A DNA stretch of 64,000 bases from a virus (taxonomy: Duplodnaviria > Caudoviricetes), in the IMG/VR virus record IMGVR_UViG_2529293058_000001, positions 3,835 to 67,834 of that record; one strand, given 5' to 3'. This document shows, piece by piece, positions 1 through 61,605 of this stretch (position 1 is the first letter of the stretch; each line of letters starts with the position of its first letter). The notes beneath the pieces are model-generated. The model saw only the letters and a program-made list of their open reading frames with translations. It did not search any database and was not told where the DNA came from. The position numbers and the translations under genes are program-made.

Positions 1-3000
1 ACGGTCTTTCAGACGCTCGGTAAAAGCAAGTATATCACGCTCTTCCTCCATCTTGTCCAGTTCACGATAGAGGGAGACACGTTCGGAGTCATTCGGGATG
101 TAGGTCGGAGGGAACATCAGTTCCAAATCGCTTTCGATATAGGTTTCACGGACATATTCGCTACCGGTGTCGGGGCGATTTTCGGTAGCGTTGGAATACA
201 GGTCGGCAAATTCTTCCGCTTTCAGTTCGTCAACGGCTTCTTCCAGGATTTTCTGGTACGTTTCGTAGCCCAAGTCGGCGATGAAACCGCTTTGTTCGGC
301 ACCTAACATATTACCGGCACCCCGGATGTCAAGGTCCTGCATGGCGATATGGATGCCGCTTCCCAACTCTGAAAAATTCTCGATCGCCTGCAAACGACGG
401 CGTGCTTCCTGCGTAAGACTTGACAAGGGTGGAGAGAGGAGATAACAGAAGGCTTTCCGGTTACTTCGCCCGACACGACCGCGTAGTTGATGCAGATCGG
501 ACAATCCGAACTGTTGTGCATTATTGATGATGATCGTATTTGCATTCGGTACGTCGATGCCACTCTCCACAATGCTCGTGGCGATCAGTACATCGTATTC
601 GTAATTGACGAAATCCAGAATGATCTTTTCCAGCTTCTCCGGTTCCATCTGCCCGTGACCGACAGCGATACGGGCATCCGGCACTTCACGTTTGACAAGT
701 GCTTCCATTTCATAAATATTTTGGATGCGATTGTTGATGAAAAAAACCTGTCCGTTACGGCTCATCTCGAAATTGATGGCTTCTCGGATGATGTCCGGGT
801 TAAAACGTTCTACCTCTGTTTGAACCGGATAGCGGTTGGGTGGGGGAGTCGTGATGCTCGACAAGTCACGGGCTCCCATCAACGAGAATTGCAGGGTACG
901 AGGAATCGGAGTGGCGGTCATGGTGAGCGTGTCGACGTTGGCTTTCAGCTGGCGTAGCTTCTCTTTGACGGATACGCCGAATTTCTGTTCCTCGTCGATA
1001 ATCAGCAGACCGAGATCTTTGAATGTGACATCTTTTCCGACGATTCGATGGGTGCCGATGATAATGTTGATATTTCCTTCTTTCAAGTCTTTCAAAGTTT
1101 CCCTTATCTCTTTCGCCGTACGTGCCCGGCTGATATATTCGATTCGGCAGGGAAAATCTTTCAACCGTTCGGAAAATGTTTGATAGTGCTGGAATGCTAA
1201 TACTGTAGTCGGGACCAGCACGGCAACTTGCTTGTTGTCCGAAACGGCTTTGAAAGCGGCACGAATGGCTACCTCTGTTTTCCCGAAGCCTACATCTCCG
1301 CAAATCAGTCGGTCCATCGGACGGTCGTTCTCCATATCGGCTTTGACATCGGCTGTTGCTTTCATCTGGTCAGGGGTATCTTCGTAGATAAAGCTGGCTT
1401 CCAGTTCGTGCTGCATGAAACTGTCTGGACTGTAAGCGAAACCTTTTTCCTGTTTTCGTTTGGAGTAGAGGAGAATCAAATCGCGGGCGATATCTTTTAC
1501 TTTTGACTTGGTGCGTTCTTTCATCTTCTCCCAGGCTCCTGTTCCGAGTTTACTCAGCTTGGGCGGTTCCCCACTGTCCTTGCCTTTATACTTGGATAGC
1601 TTATGGAGAGAGTGAATGCTGACGAATATAATGTCGTTGTTCTGGTAGATCAGTCTGATGGCTTCCTGCATTTTTCCGTTTACTTCCGTACGGACTAGCC
1701 CGCCGAATTGTCCGATACCATGATCGATATGTACGATATAATCGCCGGTCGTGAATTGGTTCAACTCCTTCAACGACAGAGAGAGTTTTCCACTTCTTGC
1801 TTTATCGCTTTTCAAGTTGAATTTATGAAAGCGGTCGAACAACTGGTGATCCGTGAAAAGGCAGACACGCAAGGTCTCGTCGGCAAAACCTTCATGGATG
1901 GTCTTGTTGACGGAGGTAAAAGGTATGTCGTCTCCCCGATCCTCAAAAATGGCCCTGATACGGGTTGCTTGCTTTTCTACATCGCTCAGTATATATAATG
2001 TATAGCCGTCTTCTAAATATTTATGGAAAGACTCGCTTACCAAATCGAAATTTTTATGATAGATCGGTTGTGCTTCCATTGAGAAAGTCAGGGTGGCATC
2101 GGCTACTCCTGTAGGCCGCGTACCAAAATGGAGCCGGCAGAAACCAAGTGCCGCATGTAGAAAATCCTCTCCGGTAATTAATTTGGCCCGCAGTTGCTCG
2201 ATGTTGGCAAACGATTCTTCGTCCCCGGTGATTGGTTCTTCATTCCAGATACTGCCGATACGTTCTTTTACCCATGCCATGTCTTTGCTAGCGAGCAGTG
2301 TCTCGGATGGCAATGAATCTAGTAAGGATGAGTTGGTCCGGTTTCCTTTTGTCATTTCGGGCACGATATAGATGCTGTCCAGTTTTTCTTTGGATAGCTG
2401 TGTTTCCACATCGAACGAACGGATCGTCTCTACTTCGTTTCCAAAGAAGTCGATACGATAGGGAAATTCATACGAGAACGAGAACACATCTAAGATACTG
2501 CCGCGCATCGCATACTGCCCTGGCTCATAAACATAATCTACCTGCTCGAAGCCGTATTCGTCCAGTACGTCAGAAACAAACATATTGTCCAACCTTTCGC
2601 TGACACTGATCTTCAGCGTGTTTTCTTTCAAGATCTCCCGTGAAATTACTTTCTCCGCCAATGCTTCCGGATAGGTGACAATGATGAAGGGAGCAGTCGG
2701 ATCCTGCAGCGTGCTGAGAACTTCTGTCCGCAGGATTTCGTTGGCTGGATCCACATGTCCGTACTTGATAGCACGTCGGTAAGCGGAAGGAAAGAAATAG
2801 ATTCCGTCACCTCCTGTGAGTTGCACCAGATCGTGATAAAAGTAGCCGGCATCCTCTAGGTCATTCAACACACACACATAACTTCCTCTTCTTTTTGAAA
2901 AAAGAGAAGCTATTATCATTGCGGCCCCTGAACCGTTCAGTCCTTTCAGAAATATATTGCGGGACGTTTTGTTTTTTAACAGGGTATTTAATGCCGCCAC

Positions 3001-3045
3001 TTGCGGATGGGCGGCATATTGTTTTAGTAAATCTTGTACCTCCAA
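1..3045 (-). CDS. mfd: Transcription-repair coupling factor Mfd (3' end outside window; TTG start)
   Basis: Minus-strand translation by eye gives LEVQDLLKQYAAHPQV at the start, RPMDRLICGDVGFGKTEVAIRAAFKAV (Walker A) and DLGLLIIDEEQKFGV (motif II). Confidence 0.96.
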   Translation of the reverse strand, partial: MEVQDLLKQYAAHPQVAALNTLLKNKTSRNIFLKGLNGSGAAMIIASLFSKRRGSYVCVLNDLEDAGYFYHDLVQLTGGDGIYFFPSAYRRAIKYGHVDPANEILRTEVLSTLQDPTAPFIIVTYPEALAEKVISREILKENTLKISVSERLDNMFVSDVLDEYGFEQVDYVYEPGQYAMRGSILDVFSFSYEFPYRIDFFGNEVETIRSFDVETQLSKEKLDSIYIVPEMTKGNRTNSSLLDSLPSETLLASKDMAWVKERIGSIWNEEPITGDEESFANIEQLRAKLITGEDFLHAALGFCRLHFGTRPTGVADATLTFSMEAQPIYHKNFDLVSESFHKYLEDGYTLYILSDVEKQATRIRAIFEDRGDDIPFTSVNKTIHEGFADETLRVCLFTDHQLFDRFHKFNLKSDKARSGKLSLSLKELNQFTTGDYIVHIDHGIGQFGGLVRTEVNGKMQEAIRLIYQNNDIIFVSIHSLHKLSKYKGKDSGEPPKLSKLGTGAWEKMKERTKSKVKDIARDLILLYSKRKQEKGFAYSPDSFMQHELEASFIYEDTPDQMKATADVKADMENDRPMDRLICGDVGFGKTEVAIRAAFKAVSDNKQVAVLVPTTVLAFQHYQTFSERLKDFPCRIEYISRARTAKEIRETLKDLKEGNINIIIGTHRIVGKDVTFKDLGLLIIDEEQKFGVSVKEKLRQLKANVDTLTMTATPIPRTLQFSLMGARDLSSITTPPPNRYPVQTEVERFNPDIIREAINFEMSRNGQVFFINNRIQNIYEMEALVKREVPDARIAVGHGQMEPEKLEKIILDFVNYEYDVLIATSIVESGIDVPNANTIIINNAQQFGLSDLHQLRGRVGRSNRKAFCYLLSPPLSSLTQEARRRLQAIENFSELGSGIHIAMQDLDIRGAGNMLGAEQSGFIADLGYETYQKILEEAVDELKAEEFADLYSNATENRPDTGSEYVRETYIESDLELMFPPTYIPNDSERVSLYRELDKMEEERDILAFTERLKDR

Positions 3046-3217
3046 CGGATGAATTGAAAATTGATAATTATATATGCGCAAAATTACGGAAAATGTTACA
3101 ATAATCTTCCTAAAACCAATGAAAATATCTACCTTCGCGCTTGGGTTGTCAATTGAAATGAGCAGGATCTTCTCATTTTCAATTCTCAATTCTCATTTTT
3201 CAATTAAACAGTGGATT

Positions 3218-3241
3218 ATGTCAGACAGTATTGTTAACTGA
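3218..3241 (+). pseudogene. 5' stub (MSDSIV-N-stop) of a polyprenol/dolichol-phosphate mannose synthase (GT2) gene; probable attL junction
   Basis: atg tca gac agt att gtt aac tga lies divergent from mfd. In Bacteroidales the gene divergent from mfd is a GT2 starting (QT)SDSIVIIPTYNE (recalled). A phage integrase starts 170 nt downstream. Confidence 0.7.
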
Positions 3242-3411
3242 AGCATATTCTTTGTAATGCTAATCTCCCATAACTGATTATTAAAAAGGTTATTGTGGCT
3301 GTTTGAGATATAATGACTTAGGACTATTTGGCCAGTTTTTACCTCCTTACATTGCTGGTTTAACATGGAAGTCTTGCCAGAATAAAAGGCTCCGTTTACA
3401 AATAGTTTACA

Positions 3412-4647
3412 GTGATGGCTTATTTCAAAGTTTGTGTCAGGGGGAAAAGAAAAGATAATACATATCCTATTTATATCAGGGTAACTCACCTTCGTCAAGT
3501 AGGATATATCAAGACAAATAAGGTATGCAAAGCTAAGTTTGTCCGGAATGGTGATATAGCAGACCCTTATATCATTAAAGATGTGTATGTCCAAATAGAA
3601 ACTTATTTGGATCGTTTGAATCGTGTCAATACGGAAGGATGGAATTTGGAGAGGGTTATGAATTTTCTTAAGAATGACCGGGACTCTATTTCGTTTTCTG
3701 ACTTTGGCCGAGAGTTTATCTTGAAAATGGAGAATGAAGGCCGGGGAAGAAGTGCGAAAAACTATCTGTTAGCTCTTAAGAGCATGGAGAGTTACTTTGG
3801 TAACCCAAATATATCTTTTTCCGATATAACGTCCTTTTTTCTGAAGGATTGGATTTCTTCTATGAAAAACAGCAGGCAGAAAAAGAATGCCTATCCGAAT
3901 TGCGTGAAAACCATGTTTAGGGCTGGATGCGATAAATATAATGACTACGATACCGGTGAGATGCGCATCAGGCATGATCCGTTTCGTGTGGTAAAGATAC
4001 CTCCTAAGAATATTGCAGACAAGAAGGCGCTGCCGGTAGATGTTCTCAGGCGTTTTTTTGATGTTGATATTACCTCTTTGAAACCAAGTAAGCGAGGTAT
4101 GCCACCAAGAGCATATATCGCCAAAGATGTATCATTGTTGGTGTTTTGCCTGGTTGGAATAAATACGGTGGATCTTTACAATTTGGGCAAAGGTTGTTAT
4201 AAGGATGGAAAACTCTGCTATAATAGAATGAAGACAAAGGGGCGGAGAGCTGATGAGGCCTATATTGAGATAGAGGTTCCGGATTTAGTAAAACCTTTGT
4301 TTCTTAAATATCAAGGAAGAGGGGACTGGCTGTTTAATTTCAATGAAATATATGCTTCGGATAAAACTTTTAATGATTGCGTGAATAGAGGAATAAAGGA
4401 TATTGTGAGATTGGGTGGTTTACCTCCTGTTTCTACATATTCATTCCGGCATTCTTGGGCTACAATAGCTCAGGTTGTTTTTGAAGCTGGGTTAGATGTT
4501 GTTGGGTTATGTCTAAATCATGCGTCTCCGCTCCGGGTTACGGCTGGTTATGTAAAAACAGACTTTAGTATCATTGATCGTTTAAATATTAAGATACTGA
4601 GGTATGTCTTTGAAGAAAAAATAAAAAAAGGCGGAAATAATTTGTAG
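3412..4647 (+). CDS. int: Phage tyrosine integrase
   Basis: N-terminal arm-binding-like YPIYIRVTH; catalytic region GINTVDL...RMKTKG...YSFRHSWAT...LNH...TAGY, typical of Bacteroidetes tyrosine recombinases. Confidence 0.92.
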   Translation: MMAYFKVCVRGKRKDNTYPIYIRVTHLRQVGYIKTNKVCKAKFVRNGDIADPYIIKDVYVQIETYLDRLNRVNTEGWNLERVMNFLKNDRDSISFSDFGREFILKMENEGRGRSAKNYLLALKSMESYFGNPNISFSDITSFFLKDWISSMKNSRQKKNAYPNCVKTMFRAGCDKYNDYDTGEMRIRHDPFRVVKIPPKNIADKKALPVDVLRRFFDVDITSLKPSKRGMPPRAYIAKDVSLLVFCLVGINTVDLYNLGKGCYKDGKLCYNRMKTKGRRADEAYIEIEVPDLVKPLFLKYQGRGDWLFNFNEIYASDKTFNDCVNRGIKDIVRLGGLPPVSTYSFRHSWATIAQVVFEAGLDVVGLCLNHASPLRVTAGYVKTDFSIIDRLNIKILRYVFEEKIKKGGNNL

Positions 4648-4663
4648 ATTAAGAAAAAGCCTC

Positions 4664-4807
4664 TATATTTGCGGTTGAAATAGCGAGTTGGATTTTGAAC
4701 GAAAGTTTGAGGTCCAACTTTTTGTGTTTATATATATTGTCTTAAACTTTCTTGTAAATATCCGATAAATAACCACTTACCTGGTGCCTTCCATAAAATT
4801 AGGCACA
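4664..4807 (+). promoter_or_regulatory. Replication-operon leader: TAnnTTTG promoter, terminator-like hairpin, start-proximal hairpin
   Basis: TATATTTG at 4664-4671; AGTTGGA/TCCAACT stem (4686-4719) with GAAA loop and T-run; GTGCCT/AGGCAC stem (4784-4806) ending 1 nt before ATG 4808. Confidence 0.7.
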
Positions 4808-5920
4808 ATGACAATATCTGTTTCAAAAAATATGTTGCTTGCGAAATTGCAGCAACTTTCTCGAATAATTCCGTCGAAATCTACGACTCCGATAGTATGC
4901 AACTACCTGTTCGAAATAAAAGATGGACGGTTGTTTATTACGACTGCCAATGATGAAGGCAGGATTACGGCCAGTTTGGAATGTATGGCAGAGGAAGATC
5001 TTTCAATCTGTGTTCCTGCCTCCATTCTTGATGGGCTGAAAACATTGCCGGAGCAGCCTCTTGATATTTATATCAATCCGGACAATAAATCGATTCTTAT
5101 TAAATATTATGGAGGTAAATTCGAGGTCGTCGGATATGATTCGAAGCCTTTCCCGCAAAAGAAAAAGACAGAGATTCTTGACGAAATCCGGACTACGGCG
5201 GAAGAATTCAATAACGGTATCTCCAAAGTGATCAATTTTGCAGCTGCAGACGAACTGCGCCCTATTATGAACTCCGTATCTATTGAAACGGCTCCGGGAG
5301 AAATCATCTTTGTTTCTTCTAATGGACATGGGCTTGGTTTGTTTAAGAGAAAAAAACAATGTTGCACAGAGACCTGTTCGGTAATCATCAGCCGACAGAT
5401 CGCATCTGTTTTGAAAGGGCTGATTCCGTTATCTGAAGAAGAACTAACAATTAAAGTAGGAAGCGATTGGTCGGAAATCTCTTTCGAGGATTACGAAATT
5501 TCTTTTCGTAATGTGGAAGGTCGTTATCCCAATTGGCGGGCTGTTGTTCCGAAATCCAACAATCTTGAACTGAAAACGGATACCAAATTACTATTGGGAG
5601 CCATAAAGCGCACTTCTGTATTTTCAAGTAAAGTATCATGCCTTATAAAGTTGAGTGCCCGTTATGATAAGCTTGTTGTATCGGCCCAGGACTTGGATTA
5701 TTCCACTTCTGCGGAAGAAACCATTCCGGTAGAATTTGGAGAAAGGGAGTTTATTATCGGTGTGAAAGCGACTTTGATACAAGATATGATTTCTTGTATT
5801 GACGGTGATCGTTCGATACTTTCTTTCGGCACTCCCAGTACCGCTATTCTCATTGCCCCGGAGAAGCAAGCCGAGGGTGAAGAACTTACCTATTTATTAA
5901 TGCCTATGACAATCCAGTAA
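4808..5920 (+). CDS. dnaN: Phage-encoded DNA polymerase III beta sliding clamp
   Basis: Three-domain clamp motifs DELRPIMNSV, VSSNGHGL, EGRYPNWRAVVP and C-terminal YLLMPM. ATG 4808 is preferred over GTG 4784. Confidence 0.92.
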   Translation: MTISVSKNMLLAKLQQLSRIIPSKSTTPIVCNYLFEIKDGRLFITTANDEGRITASLECMAEEDLSICVPASILDGLKTLPEQPLDIYINPDNKSILIKYYGGKFEVVGYDSKPFPQKKKTEILDEIRTTAEEFNNGISKVINFAAADELRPIMNSVSIETAPGEIIFVSSNGHGLGLFKRKKQCCTETCSVIISRQIASVLKGLIPLSEEELTIKVGSDWSEISFEDYEISFRNVEGRYPNWRAVVPKSNNLELKTDTKLLLGAIKRTSVFSSKVSCLIKLSARYDKLVVSAQDLDYSTSAEETIPVEFGEREFIIGVKATLIQDMISCIDGDRSILSFGTPSTAILIAPEKQAEGEELTYLLMPMTIQ

Positions 5921-9142: not shown

Positions 9143-9181
9143 ATATAATCTTTGAATAAAAAATCATTAAAAGTTACAATT

Positions 9182-9730
9182 ATGGCAAATTTAACATTAA
9201 ACACGAGAGAAATTGCGAAAGTAAACAATGTGGCTATCATGGCTGGTAATGATCCTAAGAAGTTGGTTCCCATCAAACCAATTTGTGAGGCATTGGGGAT
9301 TGATTATGCAAGACAATTCCAAAAACTGAAAGATGATGAAGATCTCGGTCCAATTATTGGCCTGACGCCAACAGTTGCAGCAGATGGAAAAATAAGAGAA
9401 ATGGTATGCTTACCTATGGAATTCATATTTGGTTGGTTATTTACCATCAATCCAAAAAATGTAAAACCGGAAGCGCAAGAGGCTGTCCGAACGTATCGGA
9501 TGCAATGTTATCATGTCCTATACGAATACTTCGCTTCCTACGCCAGTTTCGTCAACCAAAAACAAAAACGGCAAGCGGAAGACTGGGTACGTATCCAAAT
9601 TCTGAAAAGGGAATTTCATGAAGCGAAGAACAAGCTGGCCAAGGCAACGAAGCAAATGAATATGACAGTAGATTACTCATTTGAACAATGGAAGGCTAAC
9701 GGGAAACAATTATTAATTGAGTTTGAGTGA
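9182..9730 (+). CDS. Phage antirepressor N-terminal-domain protein (P22 Ant-N-like)
   Basis: LVPIKPICEALGIDY..QFQKLK and MVCLPMEFIFGWLFTINP motifs. Confidence 0.8.
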   Translation: MANLTLNTREIAKVNNVAIMAGNDPKKLVPIKPICEALGIDYARQFQKLKDDEDLGPIIGLTPTVAADGKIREMVCLPMEFIFGWLFTINPKNVKPEAQEAVRTYRMQCYHVLYEYFASYASFVNQKQKRQAEDWVRIQILKREFHEAKNKLAKATKQMNMTVDYSFEQWKANGKQLLIEFE

Positions 9731-56341: not shown

Positions 56342-56512
56342 TTACCAATGTTTCTTTATCGTGTAAACCATTGCCACGCAACCAGATGCCGTAACTATAT
56401 GCTGGAAATACCCCAAGCAAATAGCGATAATACCAAGTATGGCAAGCGTTCCAAACAGGATGTAAAATCCCCACCTCGCTACTTGAGCGAGTTTCCAGTA
56501 ATTTGTTTTCAT
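56342..56512 (-). CDS. 56-aa membrane peptide
   Basis: MKTNYWKLAQVARWGFYILFGTLAILGIIAICLGYFQH...; a different frame from the track ORF 56331-56519. Confidence 0.55.
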   Translation of the reverse strand: MKTNYWKLAQVARWGFYILFGTLAILGIIAICLGYFQHIVTASGCVAMVYTIKKHW

Positions 56513-56550
56513 ACATCAATGATTAATTGGCAAAAGCCGTTTACTTGTCT

Positions 56551-56617
56551 TTGAAATAGCGAGTTGGATTTATATTGTAAACATCCTCCGATAACCCTTT
56601 ACCTGGAGTGCCTTGCC
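56551..56617 (-). ncRNA. Intergenic segment of the early transcript complementary to the replication-operon leader
   Basis: 56551-71 is identical to 4675-95 (21/21); 56576-617 is similar to 4752-92. Confidence 0.6.
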
Positions 56618-56632
56618 GTGTTAATAATTCAT

Positions 56633-56890
56633 TTAGTAATCGTATGGATTCAGGGCGCATTTATACAAGTCTTCCAACCTGTATTCGATTTTGCCCGGCC
56701 GTTTGTAACGCTGTAAAGTACCTTCCGAGACCCATCGCTCCACATTCTTCCGTCCAAAGCGGATACGTGCTTCCTTTTGTCCGATAAACTCTCTGGTTCC
56801 GGCTTGTATCTTGGTGATTTGCCAAGCGAGGTATTCAAGTTCGATTTTCCGAAAAGAAGGAATGTTTGGATAGGTTGTGTCGGTCTGCAT
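56633..56890 (-). CDS. Excisionase-like winged-HTH protein
   Basis: FGRKNVERWVSEG.LQRYKRPGKIEY motif. Confidence 0.55.
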   Translation of the reverse strand: MQTDTTYPNIPSFRKIELEYLAWQITKIQAGTREFIGQKEARIRFGRKNVERWVSEGTLQRYKRPGKIEYRLEDLYKCALNPYDY

Positions 56891-56892
56891 GA

Positions 56893-57450
56893 TTATTCGC
56901 TTTTAAAAAGATTCTTTTCGTTTGCATATCGCATAAACTCCGCCATAGAGTGTATCGAGAGTTTTCGGAACACGTTCTTCCGATGATTCTTTACGGTGTG
57001 GGACGATATAAAAAGCGCTTCCGCAATCTCTTCGTCTTTCTTGCCATAGTAGCAAAGCTCCATCACCCTAAGTTGACTGTCTGAAAGTGTGCTGTTGAAC
57101 TTCGGTTCACAGATTTTCTTGAAGCCATCGCATTCTCCACGCAGCGGACAACCGACAAATTCAAACTTGAAGTTCCAGTTCTCATCGATATCGATCATGT
57201 TGTCATACAGTCCGAAGTTGCATTTGATAAACCTGCGTACAGCCAGGAAATCACGATAGCATTTGTTCCCGTCGTAACGGGCGTAATATTTACGGAGTGC
57301 CGTGTAAGCTTCCGGATAGAACTCTTCCAGCACCTCTAGAAAACGCTGAATAAAGTCGGTATCCGATTCCTTTAACTGGCGCTCCGGCTGTCCCTGTTCT
57401 TTGATGATTACTTCACCGGATGGAGTGGTATAGAATTCTATTGCATGCAT
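56893..57450 (-). CDS. LuxR-HTH transcriptional regulator
   Basis: C-terminal LSDSQLRVM...EEIAEALFISSHTVKNHRKNVFRKL. Confidence 0.85.
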   Translation of the reverse strand: MHAIEFYTTPSGEVIIKEQGQPERQLKESDTDFIQRFLEVLEEFYPEAYTALRKYYARYDGNKCYRDFLAVRRFIKCNFGLYDNMIDIDENWNFKFEFVGCPLRGECDGFKKICEPKFNSTLSDSQLRVMELCYYGKKDEEIAEALFISSHTVKNHRKNVFRKLSIHSMAEFMRYANEKNLFKSE

Positions 57451-57698
57451 GATTCTCCCTCCGGAAAAAGAATTTCTATAGGTGCGCCTAATTCTTTAGA
57501 TATAGCCTTTTTGCAAAGCTTATCGGGGCTGAATGTGCCTCTTAACCAATTGTAAACAGTTTGTTCTGTACGCTCTGTCGCATTAGCAATCCGGCGAACG
57601 AACTCCTGCTTGGGCGTTGGGATTTTATCAAGTGCTTCATACCTGTCTTTGAAAGACAGCTCACTTGCTCCATGACTTTGTAGGGTTAATTTTTCCAT
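57438..57698 (-). CDS. Cro-like HTH protein
   Basis: First gene of the leftward operon; EQTVYNWLRG..SP HTH. Confidence 0.7.
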   Translation of the reverse strand: MEKLTLQSHGASELSFKDRYEALDKIPTPKQEFVRRIANATERTEQTVYNWLRGTFSPDKLCKKAISKELGAPIEILFPEGESCMQ

Positions 57699-57738
57699 TT
57701 TTTACCTCCTTACATTATTATATATATACTAATTTCTT

Positions 57739-57825
57739 TACCTTTGATGTTGTATTAATTATTACAGGTGCAAATATACACTATAATATTTTAGTATATG
57801 TGGTTTTGTGCTAAAATATTATAGT
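57739..57825. promoter_or_regulatory. Divergent promoters with inverted operator pair
   Basis: Rightward TACCTTTG (57739-46); leftward TATATTTG (about 57771-78); ACTATAATATTTTAG (57780-94) and its exact reverse complement (57811-25). Confidence 0.65.
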
Positions 57826-58586: not shown

Positions 58587-58610
58587 GCAAATATACTAAA
58601 ATATTAAAGT
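58587..58610. promoter_or_regulatory. Third operator copy and leftward promoter next to the CI start
   Basis: GCAAATATAC followed by CTAAAATATTAAAGT (14/15 match to 57811-25). Confidence 0.55.
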
Positions 58611-59312
58611 ATGCAATTATGTAAAGCTGAAATAGTGCAGAAAGCGATAGAGCTGATTTCTAATTCAACCTTATCAAATTATAAGATTGCTAAAGATACG
58701 GGTATAACGGAAGCTTCTATAGGAAATTATAGAAACGGAAATACAAGACCGACTTTGGCGAATGCTAATATCATAATAGATTATTTCAATAAAAAGGAAT
58801 TGGAATTGTCTGGTTCTAACTTAGTTATTAATACCGAAACAGAATATAAAGAAGCTATGGAGAAAGGATTAAAGTTATTGCCAGAGGTTGATTTCAAGTT
58901 CTCAGGCGGAAATGCAGAGTTGTTAGGAAGTACAGACTCTGTAAAGCGATATTGGTATTTACCTGATTGTAAAGATTGCGAAGCAATTGCCCAAGTCGCA
59001 GGTAATTCGATGGCTCCGGCCTATCCATCCGGTTGCTGGATTGCTTTGAAACGTTTCAGCTTTGAGAAAGAGTTCCCTAATCAAATTCCGTTTGGGAATG
59101 TATTCGGAATTGTTGTCGAAGATAAGCAGACCGGAGATTATCATGGTCATATTAAGATCTTGCGTCGCTATAGTGATCCCTCTTTGGCCAAGCGATTTTG
59201 GATAGCCCGGTCTGTAGATCGGGAGAACCATGATGATTTTGATATCGATATTGAACAGGTGCGTGGTTTGTGGATTGTGAAGCAGCATGTGGTTGCGGAT
59301 GTAATATTGTAG
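58611..59312 (+). CDS. cI: CI-like repressor (HTH + S24 peptidase)
   Basis: YKIAKDTGITEASIGNYRNG..RP HTH; AGNSMAP Ser and IKIL Lys. Confidence 0.9.
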   Translation: MQLCKAEIVQKAIELISNSTLSNYKIAKDTGITEASIGNYRNGNTRPTLANANIIIDYFNKKELELSGSNLVINTETEYKEAMEKGLKLLPEVDFKFSGGNAELLGSTDSVKRYWYLPDCKDCEAIAQVAGNSMAPAYPSGCWIALKRFSFEKEFPNQIPFGNVFGIVVEDKQTGDYHGHIKILRRYSDPSLAKRFWIARSVDRENHDDFDIDIEQVRGLWIVKQHVVADVIL

Positions 59313-60117: not shown

Positions 60118-60372
60118 CGAAAAAGTAAATTTGGGCAAAGCGTAGCGAATTAGCTGATAGAGCGTTCGTTACGCTTTGTTTTTCTATGGGACAGAGCCAA
60201 CGAAATACCACCTCGAAGCCAAACGGCTCAGAAGTTCAGTTACCACCTCGTTACTCCCGTAACGGGTGCAAATTTCTTGCTAAAAGGTTATTTTTCTGCG
60301 CTTTGCGCTGATTTGCATAGCTGTCGGTAACTCACTAAGAACTAATTTTGTAACCAAAAAAAGGAGTGAGTT

Positions 60373-61605
60373 ATGCGAAGTACATTCAAGGTATTATTTT
60401 ACGTGAAGAAAGGCAGCGAGAAGCCGAACGGCAACCTGCCTCTGATGTGCCGTATCACGGTGGACGGCGAGATTAAACAGTTCAGTTGCAAGATGGACGT
60501 TCCCCCACGCTTGTGGGACGTGAAGAACAGCCGTGCTTCGGGCAAGAGCGTCGAAGCGCAGAGAATCAACCTTGCAGTAGATAAAATCCGTGTGGAGGTA
60601 AACCGCCGCTATCAAGAGTTAATGCAGACGGACGGTTATGTTACCGCCGCCAAACTCAAAGACGCCTATCTCGGTATCGGCGTCAAGCAGGAAACTTTGC
60701 TGAAGCTGTTCGAGCAGCACAACGCCGAGTTCGAGAAGAAAGTCGGGCACAGCAGGGCGCAGGGTACATTTACCCGTTATCGGACGGTCTGCAACCATAT
60801 TCGGGAGTTCCTGCCCCATACCTACAAGCGTGAGGATATTCCATTAAAGGAACTAAACCTCACGTTCATCAACGACTTCGAGTATTTTCTGCGCACGGAG
60901 AAGAAATGCCGCACCAATACCGTGTGGGGCTACATGATTGTGTTGAAACACATCGTTTCCATAGCGAGGAACGACGGGCGTTTGCCCTTTAATCCCTTTG
61001 CGGGATATATCAACTCTCCCGAAAGCGTGGACAGGGGCTACCTCACCCAAACGGAGATACAGACGCTCATGGACGCACCGATGAAGAACGCCACCCACGA
61101 GCTTGTACGGGACTTGTTCGTCTTTTCGGTGTTCACGGGTTTGGCGTATTCGGACGTGAAGAACCTCACCGCCGACCGCCTGCAAACATTCTTCGACGGC
61201 AACCTGTGGATAATCACCCGAAGAAAGAAGACCAACACCGAATCGAACATCCGCCTTTTGGACGTTCCCAAGCGTATCATCGAGAAATACAAGGGGCTGG
61301 CAAGGGACGGTCATGTTTTCCCCGTTCCGAGCAACGGCAGTTGTAACAAGATACTCAAAGATATAGGCAAACAATGCGGCTTCAAGGTGCGTTTGACCTA
61401 CCATGTCGCACGCCACACGAACGCCACGACCGTGCTTCTGTCGCACGGCGTACCCATCGAAACGGTGAGCCGCCTTTTGGGACACACGAACATAAAGACC
61501 ACCCAAATTTACGCCAAAATCACCGCCCAGAAGATAAGCCAAGACATGGAAACCTTGTCGCACAAGTTGGAGGATATGGAGAAGAATATCTGCCGAGCCA
61601 TTTAA
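60373..61605 (+). CDS. intDOT: IntDOT-like tyrosine integrase
   Basis: MRSTFKVLFYVKKGSEKPNG start; GLAYSD (Ser in place of the first Arg), YHVARH and LGH...TQIY. Confidence 0.9.
   Translation: MRSTFKVLFYVKKGSEKPNGNLPLMCRITVDGEIKQFSCKMDVPPRLWDVKNSRASGKSVEAQRINLAVDKIRVEVNRRYQELMQTDGYVTAAKLKDAYLGIGVKQETLLKLFEQHNAEFEKKVGHSRAQGTFTRYRTVCNHIREFLPHTYKREDIPLKELNLTFINDFEYFLRTEKKCRTNTVWGYMIVLKHIVSIARNDGRLPFNPFAGYINSPESVDRGYLTQTEIQTLMDAPMKNATHELVRDLFVFSVFTGLAYSDVKNLTADRLQTFFDGNLWIITRRKKTNTESNIRLLDVPKRIIEKYKGLARDGHVFPVPSNGSCNKILKDIGKQCGFKVRLTYHVARHTNATTVLLSHGVPIETVSRLLGHTNIKTTQIYAKITAQKISQDMETLSHKLEDMEKNICRAI

Follow-up and report, generated by a model that had tools for sequence, protein, structure and literature searches.

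How might a replication operon be turned on when its promoter carries no operator for the phage repressor and lies directly in front of a strong predicted terminator? This question is raised by the dnaN operon of a temperate Parabacteroides phage, which occupies positions 3218-60118 of a 64,000-nucleotide (nt) stretch of DNA (positions 3,835 to 67,834 of the IMG/VR provirus record IMGVR_UViG_2529293058_000001; hereafter the window). A 21-nt sequence at the start of the dnaN leader recurs in the early-left operon, which is read from the opposite strand. The copies vary in concert across five phage lineages, which makes a joint role as a pair most likely. Functional pairing of the two transcripts is the best-supported explanation and, with all RNA-level readings taken together, seems probable to us. 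The specific reading that we favor, namely that the early transcript pairs in trans with the leader and thereby activates the dnaN operon, most likely by anti-termination, is put forward tentatively and with somewhat less than even confidence.

The 21-mer TTGAAATAGCGAGTTGGATTT is found on the plus strand at 4675-4695 and again at 56551-56571. These are the only two sites in the window when up to three mismatches are allowed (0.01 expected), and none of 100 shuffled sequences contained two. A second matched segment follows in both places. It extends from a GTAAAT box to GGTGCCT in the leader (4754-4789, plus strand) and from a GTAAAC box to GTGCCT in the distal copy (56577-56613, plus strand), with matches in 29 of 39 aligned columns of a gapped alignment (about 74%). 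Leader and distal copy differ by about 50 nt in the distance that separates their two matched segments. Weaker similarity extends upstream through the promoter (4666-4695 vs 56542-56571, 87%). A comparison with Rfam returned no family at the curated score, only chance-level matches far below the gathering scores.

The leader begins at a Bacteroides-type promoter on the plus strand (4641-4671) that consists of TTTG at 4641, a spacer of 19 nt and TATATTTG at 4664-4671. Only two full-consensus matches to this promoter type occur in the window, a count that alone is not significant, and the leader promoter is one of them. From its position we infer that transcription starts near 4675-4677. The first copy of the core (4675-4695, plus strand) would then comprise a single-stranded 5' segment (4675-4684) and the first 11 nt of the 5' arm of a predicted intrinsic terminator (4685-4731, plus strand), in which a 16-bp stem (4685-4720) with a GAAA loop is followed by a T tract. 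Stem and T tract correspond to +10 to +57 of the predicted transcript, and the terminator is separated from the integrase stop codon by 38 nt. The second matched segment runs into the 5' arm of a 6-bp hairpin (hairpin 2; 4784-4806, plus strand), which ends 1 nt before the dnaN ATG at 4808 and leaves this codon outside the stem. A window-wide scan for CI/Cro operators found none near the leader.

The distal copy of the core (56551-56571) lies in a 120-nt gap of the minus-strand early operon, between an open reading frame (ORF) for a 56-aa membrane protein and one for an 85-aa helix-turn-helix (HTH) protein, and downstream of the genes for a Cro-like and a LuxR-like regulator. Because it sits inside this operon, the early RNA carries the complement of the leader. 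No terminator is predicted on the early-operon strand in the gap. Neither hairpin has its 3' arm in the distal copy, and in every lineage described below this copy is also devoid of the terminator loop and T tract. In the early RNA, the ATG of the membrane ORF follows 38 nt downstream of the target, and this distance is 36-38 nt in lineages A, E, and F. The distal core is flanked by GTTTAC (56539-56544) and GTAAAC (56577-56582), which are invariant in all five lineages and could, in the early RNA, close a 32-nt loop presenting the core complement. This GUUUAC/GUAAAC stem is the only invariant structure found in the early RNA at the distal site (fold z-score, +1.1). An ORF of 39 aa that spans the distal copy (56541-56660, minus strand) was rejected as a gene, its frame being broken by insertions and deletions in lineages B and C.

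Much of this geometry had been proposed in a first-pass annotation of the same DNA, and most of it was borne out. The 21-nt identity is as described there, as are a terminator-like hairpin (found at 4685-4720) and a second hairpin ending 1 nt before the dnaN ATG (4784-4806). The second match, placed near 4752-4792 and 56576-56617, is refined to the intervals given above. The distal copy does lack the 3' arm of the terminator, and the transcript of the Cro-led minus-strand operon is antisense to the 5' arms only. The annotation also put the two copies 52 kb apart, which is correct for the integrated prophage but not for the circular genome. A 55.5-kb relative (L012) joins window position 60118 to position 3218 via 777 nt, so that only 5.8 kb separate the copies in the circle, one on either side of the immunity/integration module. 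The related claim that the dnaN operon is not physically downstream of the CI/Cro switch does not hold, since in the circle the operon is located downstream of the CI-side plus-strand genes and the integrase.

Is this arrangement preserved in other phages? Close relatives of the window phage reside in Parabacteroides hominis and P. distasonis; in a scan of genome contigs, the only match was in P. hominis. Lineages A, B, and C were found by exact-motif scans and are thus biased for the core, but their flanks are still informative. Relative to A, lineage B shows 58% protein identity in the integrase and 59% in DnaN, and lineage C shows 42% in DnaN. All three retain the promoter boxes, the 19-nt spacing, the hairpin with its T tract, the GTAAAC box, and hairpin 2, and the leader is much better conserved than the neighboring genes (A vs B and A vs C). 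The distal copies of B and C were reached via flanking genes, not via the motif. They contain the 18-mer TGAAATAGCGAGTTGGAT without mismatch in a spacer that is otherwise about 76% identical. In lineage C, integrase and leader are separated by three genes on the opposite strand, so the terminator is not merely that of the integrase gene. Because these genes face away, dnaN has no visible promoter other than that of the leader, and given the strong predicted terminator at +10, read-through must be conditional.

Lineages E and F were found by a search with an alignment of three DnaN proteins, which is blind to the motif. Their DnaN identities are 63-64% (E) and 48% (F), and the five lineages span 42-64% overall. 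Both include complete proviruses (G419 of lineage E, 59.6 kb; G420 of lineage F, 58.3 kb), and their leaders agree with those of A-C in promoter, hairpin, boxes, and position. Both promoter boxes and their 19-nt spacing are invariant in all five lineages, with a variable spacer sequence. Folding predictions give the terminator and hairpin 2 in all five. In lineage F, the hairpin 2 stem has a different sequence (CUUGC/GCAAG) in the same place, and despite this new stem its 5' arm resembles the distal copy of the same phage. Among 19 distinct leaders, 418 of 418 cells in the stems are paired (100%), and all 8 variable pairs show wobble changes only. No new phage lineage emerged from an order-wide DnaN search, in which the matches were host DnaN proteins of about 35-38% identity. 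The dnaN leader architecture is absent from the distant relative BS-TP3 and from three contigs that encode a 50% identical HTH protein.

The most informative difference between these lineages lies in the free 5' segment. The leaders of A, B, and C share the segment TTGAAATAGC (class I), and those of E and F have a different one (class II, CAGAGAWTTC), which reads CAGAGAATTC in E and CAGAGATTTC in F. E and F each contain one further copy per genome, on the same strand and at the position homologous to that of the other distal copies, between the LuxR-like gene and the ORFs preceding RecT. These distal copies read AGAGATTTCGAGTCGGATTTT and are identical to their own leaders at 20 of 22 and 20 of 21 positions. 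The T-to-C difference inside the arm would give a G-U pair in the leader/early-RNA duplex. A second genome of lineage E (G425) would pair in the same way as G419, with a 1-nt bulge. A scan keyed to the hairpin and blind to the 5' segment recovered 41 leaders with only two 5'-segment classes and one single-base variant (G to A, in G424; its distal site is off the contig, and the comparison covers the leader only). The classes of leader and distal copy match in every genome that has both sites, that is, in the window, L012, P. hominis, five proviruses of lineage B, G419, G425, and G420. They also match in a natural recombinant, a 74-kb contig that combines an A-type left arm and leader with a B-type early module and distal copy. 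For lineage C, leader and distal site are on separate contigs of one metagenome.

The correspondence extends beyond the class-defining part. When the post-terminator segment was scored alone, the cognate combination of leaders and distal copies had the highest score sum of 120 permutations. Predicted hybridization energies between full leaders and early-RNA segments fall into two specificity blocks, with the cognate pair lowest in four of five rows and four of five columns. The cognate energies are -34.7 (A), -21.3 (B), -19.2 (C), -27.4 (E), and -32.6 kcal/mol (F), as compared to a mean of -2.9 kcal/mol for shuffled targets. Wobble differences between leader and distal copy, inspected by eye, are too few for a directional test. 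The first-pass annotation had suggested looking for co-conservation and compensatory change in relatives, and both are present: the two copies are kept in five lineages with 42-64% identical DnaN, and the 5' segment differs between two classes and matches within each genome. Of its interpretation that the two RNAs pair in trans, the geometry, the co-conservation, and the matched change stand; the isolation of the operon from the immunity region does not.

Two further observations concern the leader itself. The class I free 5' segment (window 4675-4683) is also complementary to dnaN codons 5-7 (4821-4829), with UUGAAAUAG facing CUGUUUCAA in lineage A and GAAAUAG facing CUAUUUC in lineage B; this complementarity is weaker in class II. 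The minimum-energy fold of class I closes the entire leader around the start codon.

Lineage F contains a third copy. A complete tRNA-Pro gene with its own promoter is followed, about 33 nt beyond and upstream of the integrase, by the sense sequence AGAGATTTCGAGTCGG, which matches the distal copy at 16 of 16 positions. This sequence supplies the free segment as well as the 5' arm of a separate hairpin that is followed by T8. The unit is kept in three contigs (G420:C1:451-600, equivalent to L322 451-600; L331 ~340-500; L355 ~110-270), and by its build it resembles a further small-RNA unit with the same target. A small hairpin between tRNA-Pro and the third copy shows a compensatory change (GTTGTTAATCAAC vs GCTGATAATCAGC).

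Matched change of two short sequences does not by itself call for RNA pairing. Operators and their cognate repressors change together in lambdoid phages, and the repeats could likewise be DNA sites for one protein, most plausibly the integrase, which would regulate or recombine there and make RNA pairing irrelevant. The integrase is indeed the only protein that follows the class (55-68% identity among A, B, and C, 77% between E and F, and 28-34% between the groups), and integrase type and class coincide perfectly (A, B, C vs E, F). However, this coincidence follows from linkage alone, because the integrase gene adjoins the leader. Among the regulators of the module, none explains the class match, because Cro, CI, the LuxR-like protein, RecT, DnaN, and PcfK ignore class and the 85-aa HTH gene is absent from E and F. 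The LuxR-like regulator is 82-96% identical across all lineages and has the same recognition helix in both classes. The Cro-like protein of A is 81% identical to that of E and 47% to that of B, and the CI proteins of A and F are 94% identical. A and B have unrelated CI proteins, yet both belong to class I, and DnaN, RecT, and PcfK do not group E with F.

The position of the copies argues in the same direction. The third copy in lineage F, next to the integrase and just past tRNA-Pro, is where arm-type sites would lie, but it is the only copy near a tRNA. The true attachment core is elsewhere (3218-3237), at 1.4 and 4.4 kb from the two copies, and no core-like sequence occurs within 400 bp of the class I attP. 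Moreover, the core is without dyad symmetry and is unrelated in sequence to the CI/Cro operators ACTAWAATATTWWAGT. The identity begins at the predicted transcription start and is confined to 5' arms, neither of which a DNA site needs, and the two segments are spaced differently, by about 50 nt, in the two copies. In view of these points, we regard a common DNA-binding protein as an improbable cause of the repeats. Two structural candidates were also rejected. The repeats are not attL and attR: the integrase and the regulators would fall outside the interval, and the attachment core is at 3218-3237. As to a mobile 5.8-kb cassette with target duplications, no empty-site or excised-circle junction exists in 65 contigs with the exact 21-mer.

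Alternatively, the distal copy could be the relic of an old leader duplication, kept similar through occasional gene conversion by the RecT system of the phage, and the terminator could act only as an insulator against read-through from the integrase and the host that is opened by a protein antiterminator. Insulation of this kind is known from Tn916, where a terminator at the end of the integrated element blocks outside transcription (PMC11658703). A host promoter reads into attL and the integrase of the phage considered here, and in a lysogen the leader terminator would also block this transcription. The phage encodes RecT and a PDDEXK nuclease, and genomes with only the distal copy as well as one deletion variant exist. 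We nevertheless consider a relic quite improbable. At DnaN identities of 42-64% neutral sequence would be unalignable, yet 18-22 nt are near-identical between the copies of each lineage. In both classes the identical stretch has the same boundaries, and the flanks are unrelated. The homology is too short to sustain long-term conversion, and direct repeats near RecT are a deletion hazard, and neither recombination product occurs among the 65 contigs. Finally, a non-exhaustive scan of the ORFs revealed no NusG-like or Q-like protein that could serve as the antiterminator.

How, then, could pairing with the early transcript activate the dnaN operon? The operon for replication and antirepressor genes would start at a promoter that lacks a CI operator. 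Its transcript would begin with a free 5' segment of 10 nt, followed by a strong terminator at +10 to +46, and transcription would normally stop there to give an RNA of about 46-50 nt. The Cro-led early-left transcript would contain, between the regulators and the membrane ORF/RecT, an exact complement of the free segment plus the 5' arm of the terminator, and also a looser complement of the stretch that enters the hairpin before the dnaN start codon. This transcript may capture the nascent leader by its free 5' segment and occupy the 5' arm of the terminator, whose folding it would thereby block; further downstream it may open hairpin 2. The replication operon would thus be on only once the lytic early operon is transcribed, and the same pairing may act in reverse on the early mRNA. 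We favor activation because the operon needs conditional read-through, because the complement covers 5' arms only, and because the second matched segment is present only in the read-through RNA. Such a model would explain why dnaN can be expressed at all from a promoter with a strong terminator at +10.

Several observations weigh against this reading. The pair of leader and distal copy is clearly not obligatory. At least seven related genomes (G410, G411, G415-G418, and G426), several of them rated complete, contain a distal copy and have no dnaN, no integrase of this type, and no second copy. In L214 (IMGVR_UViG_3300014787_000056), a natural 19-nt deletion (TCTTTGAAATAGCGAGTTG) removes most of the distal core. 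The probability that the classes match at random over five lineages is about 0.1, and the class change may have been a single evolutionary event, because E and F share the integrase type. The pattern of differences between leader and distal copy does not prove RNA pairing as opposed to DNA identity, and the A-leader/B-distal recombinant means that a cognate second segment is not required. Kinetics are also demanding: since the free segment is about 10 nt long and the terminator is complete about 35 nt later, the trans RNA would have less than 1 s to bind. The predicted accessibility of the target is 0.73-0.77 in E and F and low, at 0.33, in A, and the predicted gain from pairing with the short terminated RNA is small (-5 to -14 kcal/mol). 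Public RNA runs with the phage consist of assembled contigs, which carry no information on strand, ends, or level; contigs from RNA libraries extend across the terminator, but DNA may be their source. Repression or titration of the early mRNA fits the third copy of lineage F better than activation of dnaN does. Finally, the opposite logic, in which the short RNA silences the early mRNA, fits equally well, and the third copy favors it.

This reverse direction, already raised in the first-pass annotation, invokes the same pairing. The short terminated leader RNA would be a constitutive antisense RNA that binds the early-left mRNA 38 nt upstream of the membrane ORF/RecT and lowers expression, for example by premature termination or by cleavage with RNase III. 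The same sequence is present at the 3' end of the integrase mRNA, which could act alike. The result would be a second, RNA-based layer of immunity that could hit incoming relatives with other CI proteins, much like c4 of P1 and P7. The combination of a promoter, a free 5' segment, and a terminator is the standard build of a small regulatory RNA, and because it has no CI operator, the leader promoter may be active in lysogens. That A and B share class I despite unrelated CI proteins agrees with such a layer, distal-only phages would simply be targets, and lineage F has a second unit of 5' segment and terminator that anti-termination of dnaN cannot explain. Precedents exist for an RNA made by early termination at the always-active PR' (StxS; PMC7547250) and for heteroimmunity through the c4 RNA of P1/P7 (PMC12197685). 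On the other hand, silencing leaves the match of the second segment and of the hairpin 2 arm unexplained: the short RNA would end at the terminator and contain neither of them. A -19 kcal/mol hairpin ties up half of the core and makes the net predicted gain small. In addition, the target lies clear of the start codon, and expression of dnaN is not accounted for. We therefore see silencing as a strong rival that is unlikely in our estimate and can coexist with activation.

The distal-only phages mentioned above are part of an extensive mosaicism that includes G410, G411, G415-G418, G426, and IMGVR_UViG_3300029346_000094. Phages with unrelated left arms and no dnaN share the RecT-to-CI module, distal copy included. 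The intact copy in these phages says nothing about selection, because they are locally about 99% identical to pair-bearing phages. One mosaic breakpoint falls exactly on the start codon of the membrane ORF, 45 nt from the core; among the breakpoints in G410, G411, and G415, none is at the repeats. The deletion in L214 is located about 90 nt after the stop codon of the HTH gene, between two TTG repeats.

The left end of the phage adjoins the host gene mfd (1-3189, minus strand) and is marked by the attL core ATGTCAGACAGTATTGTTAA at 3218-3237; position 4718 of L012 corresponds to window 3217/3218. The 20-nt core was assigned because contigs from public runs pass from L012 into two different host flanks, at 4718 on the mfd side and at 4737 on the other. 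The attachment core (window 3218-3241; L012 4718-4737) coincides with the initial codons of a host gene that is oriented divergently to mfd, and the other host flank in the public contigs (TTATTCCCACGTATAACGAAAAGGAG) carries on the reading frame of this gene. The 777 nt that precede attR in relatives are missing from the window. A second element cuts the right end of the phage at 60118 and encodes its own tyrosine integrase (60373-61605; Arm-binding, SAM-like, and catalytic domains), with 75% DNA identity to the integrase of the mosaic phage G410.

On the plus strand, attL is followed by a 411-aa tyrosine integrase (3412-4647; Pfam SAM-like domain, PHROG integrase), the leader, the DnaN-like sliding clamp as first gene of the operon (4808-5920), PcfK, PcfJ, a DnaD-like initiator, DUF6633, a P22-type antirepressor that belongs to the dnaN operon (9152-9730), and the structural genes. 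The order on the minus strand is SNF2 helicase, PDDEXK nuclease, RecT, the membrane ORF next to it (56342-56512), the distal copy, and then three further genes of the early-left operon, namely those for the HTH protein (56633-56890), the LuxR/GerE-type regulator (56893-57450), and the Cro-like protein (57438-57698). The putative operators of the immunity switch, ACTAWAATATTWWAGT, are 16-bp palindromes at 57780-57795, 57810-57825, and 58595-58610. The first two are located between the Cro-like gene and the first plus-strand gene, and the third abuts the start codon of the CI-like gene (58611-59312, plus strand). This motif gives 6 strand-matches vs 0.5 expected, all of them within the immunity region, and the rest of the window has none. 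Positions 3326-3353 and 57689-57716 form a second long-range direct repeat (28 nt, 89%; minus strand AATGTAAGGAGGTAAAAA(A/C)TGG). Its right copy, at 57698, comprises the start of the Cro-like gene and a Shine-Dalgarno-like AGGAGG, which is unusual in Bacteroidota; these bacteria do without Shine-Dalgarno-based initiation. In the left copy, between attL and the integrase, CTG replaces ATG.

If activation is true, it explains how an operon without repressor operators is coupled to the lytic switch. If instead the reverse direction is true, these phages have an RNA immunity layer that cuts across CI types and is relevant to competition among gut prophages. The two matched classes constitute a ready-made swap experiment, and the conserved promoter, 10-nt segment, and terminator are candidate orthogonal parts for the engineering of Bacteroides. 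The regulatory RNA biology of Bacteroidota and of their abundant gut prophages is poorly known, and to our knowledge these bacteria apparently lack Hfq.

Several known systems share parts of this design. The lambda nutL and nutR sites are also a short element that occurs twice, once per operon leaving the immunity region. However, nut is inverted in the DNA, is sense in both transcripts, and recruits the N protein, whereas the copies described here are direct in the DNA, which makes one sense and one antisense. In T7, abortive transcripts act as trans antiterminators on the hairpin terminator T-phi (PMC2952870). They too are short RNAs that act in trans on a hairpin-dependent intrinsic terminator, but they are tiny products of the same promoter and not of a dedicated complementary site in another operon. 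We know of no matched change of partners for T7 abortive transcripts. In Stx phages, the short RNA from PR'-tR' acts in trans (PMC7547250). The PR'-tR' unit of lambda and Stx phages (6S/StxS) resembles the dnaN leader in that a repressor-independent promoter directly precedes a terminator and gives a short RNA in lysogens. There, read-through is caused by the Q protein, for which we found no counterpart among the ORFs of this phage in the non-exhaustive scan, and PR'-tR' has no antisense copy elsewhere in the phage.

The c4 RNA of P1/P7 (immI) and the CI RNA of P4 are antisense RNAs that pair with short sites in an antirepressor-containing operon, and the operon considered here holds a P22-type antirepressor. 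In P1/P7, small matched differences in the pairing sequences define immunity specificity (PMC12197685), much as two matched classes are found here. Both c4 and P4 CI are processed from the transcript that they control and repress it; by contrast, the partners described here come from two opposite operons 5.8 kb apart in the circle, and the effect that we favor is activation.

The closest parallels are engineered. In a toehold switch, a trans RNA pairs with a free stretch and with the 5' arm of a hairpin next to the start codon. The second complementary stretch of the phage pair (29 of 39 columns, lineage-specific) likewise enters the 5' arm of the start-codon hairpin. Small transcription activating RNAs (STARs) are synthetic as well (bioRxiv 10.1101/022772). 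As with STARs, a terminator hairpin is placed between promoter and gene, and the trans RNA is complementary to the stretch 5' of the hairpin and the 5' arm only (21 of 21 at 4675-4695). In contrast to both designs, the phage pair is natural, and its activator would be a segment of a long mRNA instead of a dedicated small RNA. The free stretch measures only about 10 nt, the start codon is outside hairpin 2, and the effect is predicted from sequence. It is conceivable, although open to considerable doubt, that this locus is a natural counterpart of STARs and toehold switches in which early mRNA invades the terminator and the start-codon hairpin, swappable 10-nt segments set the specificity classes of gut Bacteroidales phages, and the leader RNA and the tRNA-trailer copy of lineage F act back on early mRNA as immunity. 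The STAR/toehold principle was designed in synthetic biology without a natural model. If the favored reading is true, this would be the first natural case in which a trans RNA starts strand invasion at a free 5' segment and thereby suppresses an intrinsic terminator. As it stands, the pair may be viewed as a variant of antisense control in phages; should activation be demonstrated, it would become the first natural example of the STAR/toehold design.

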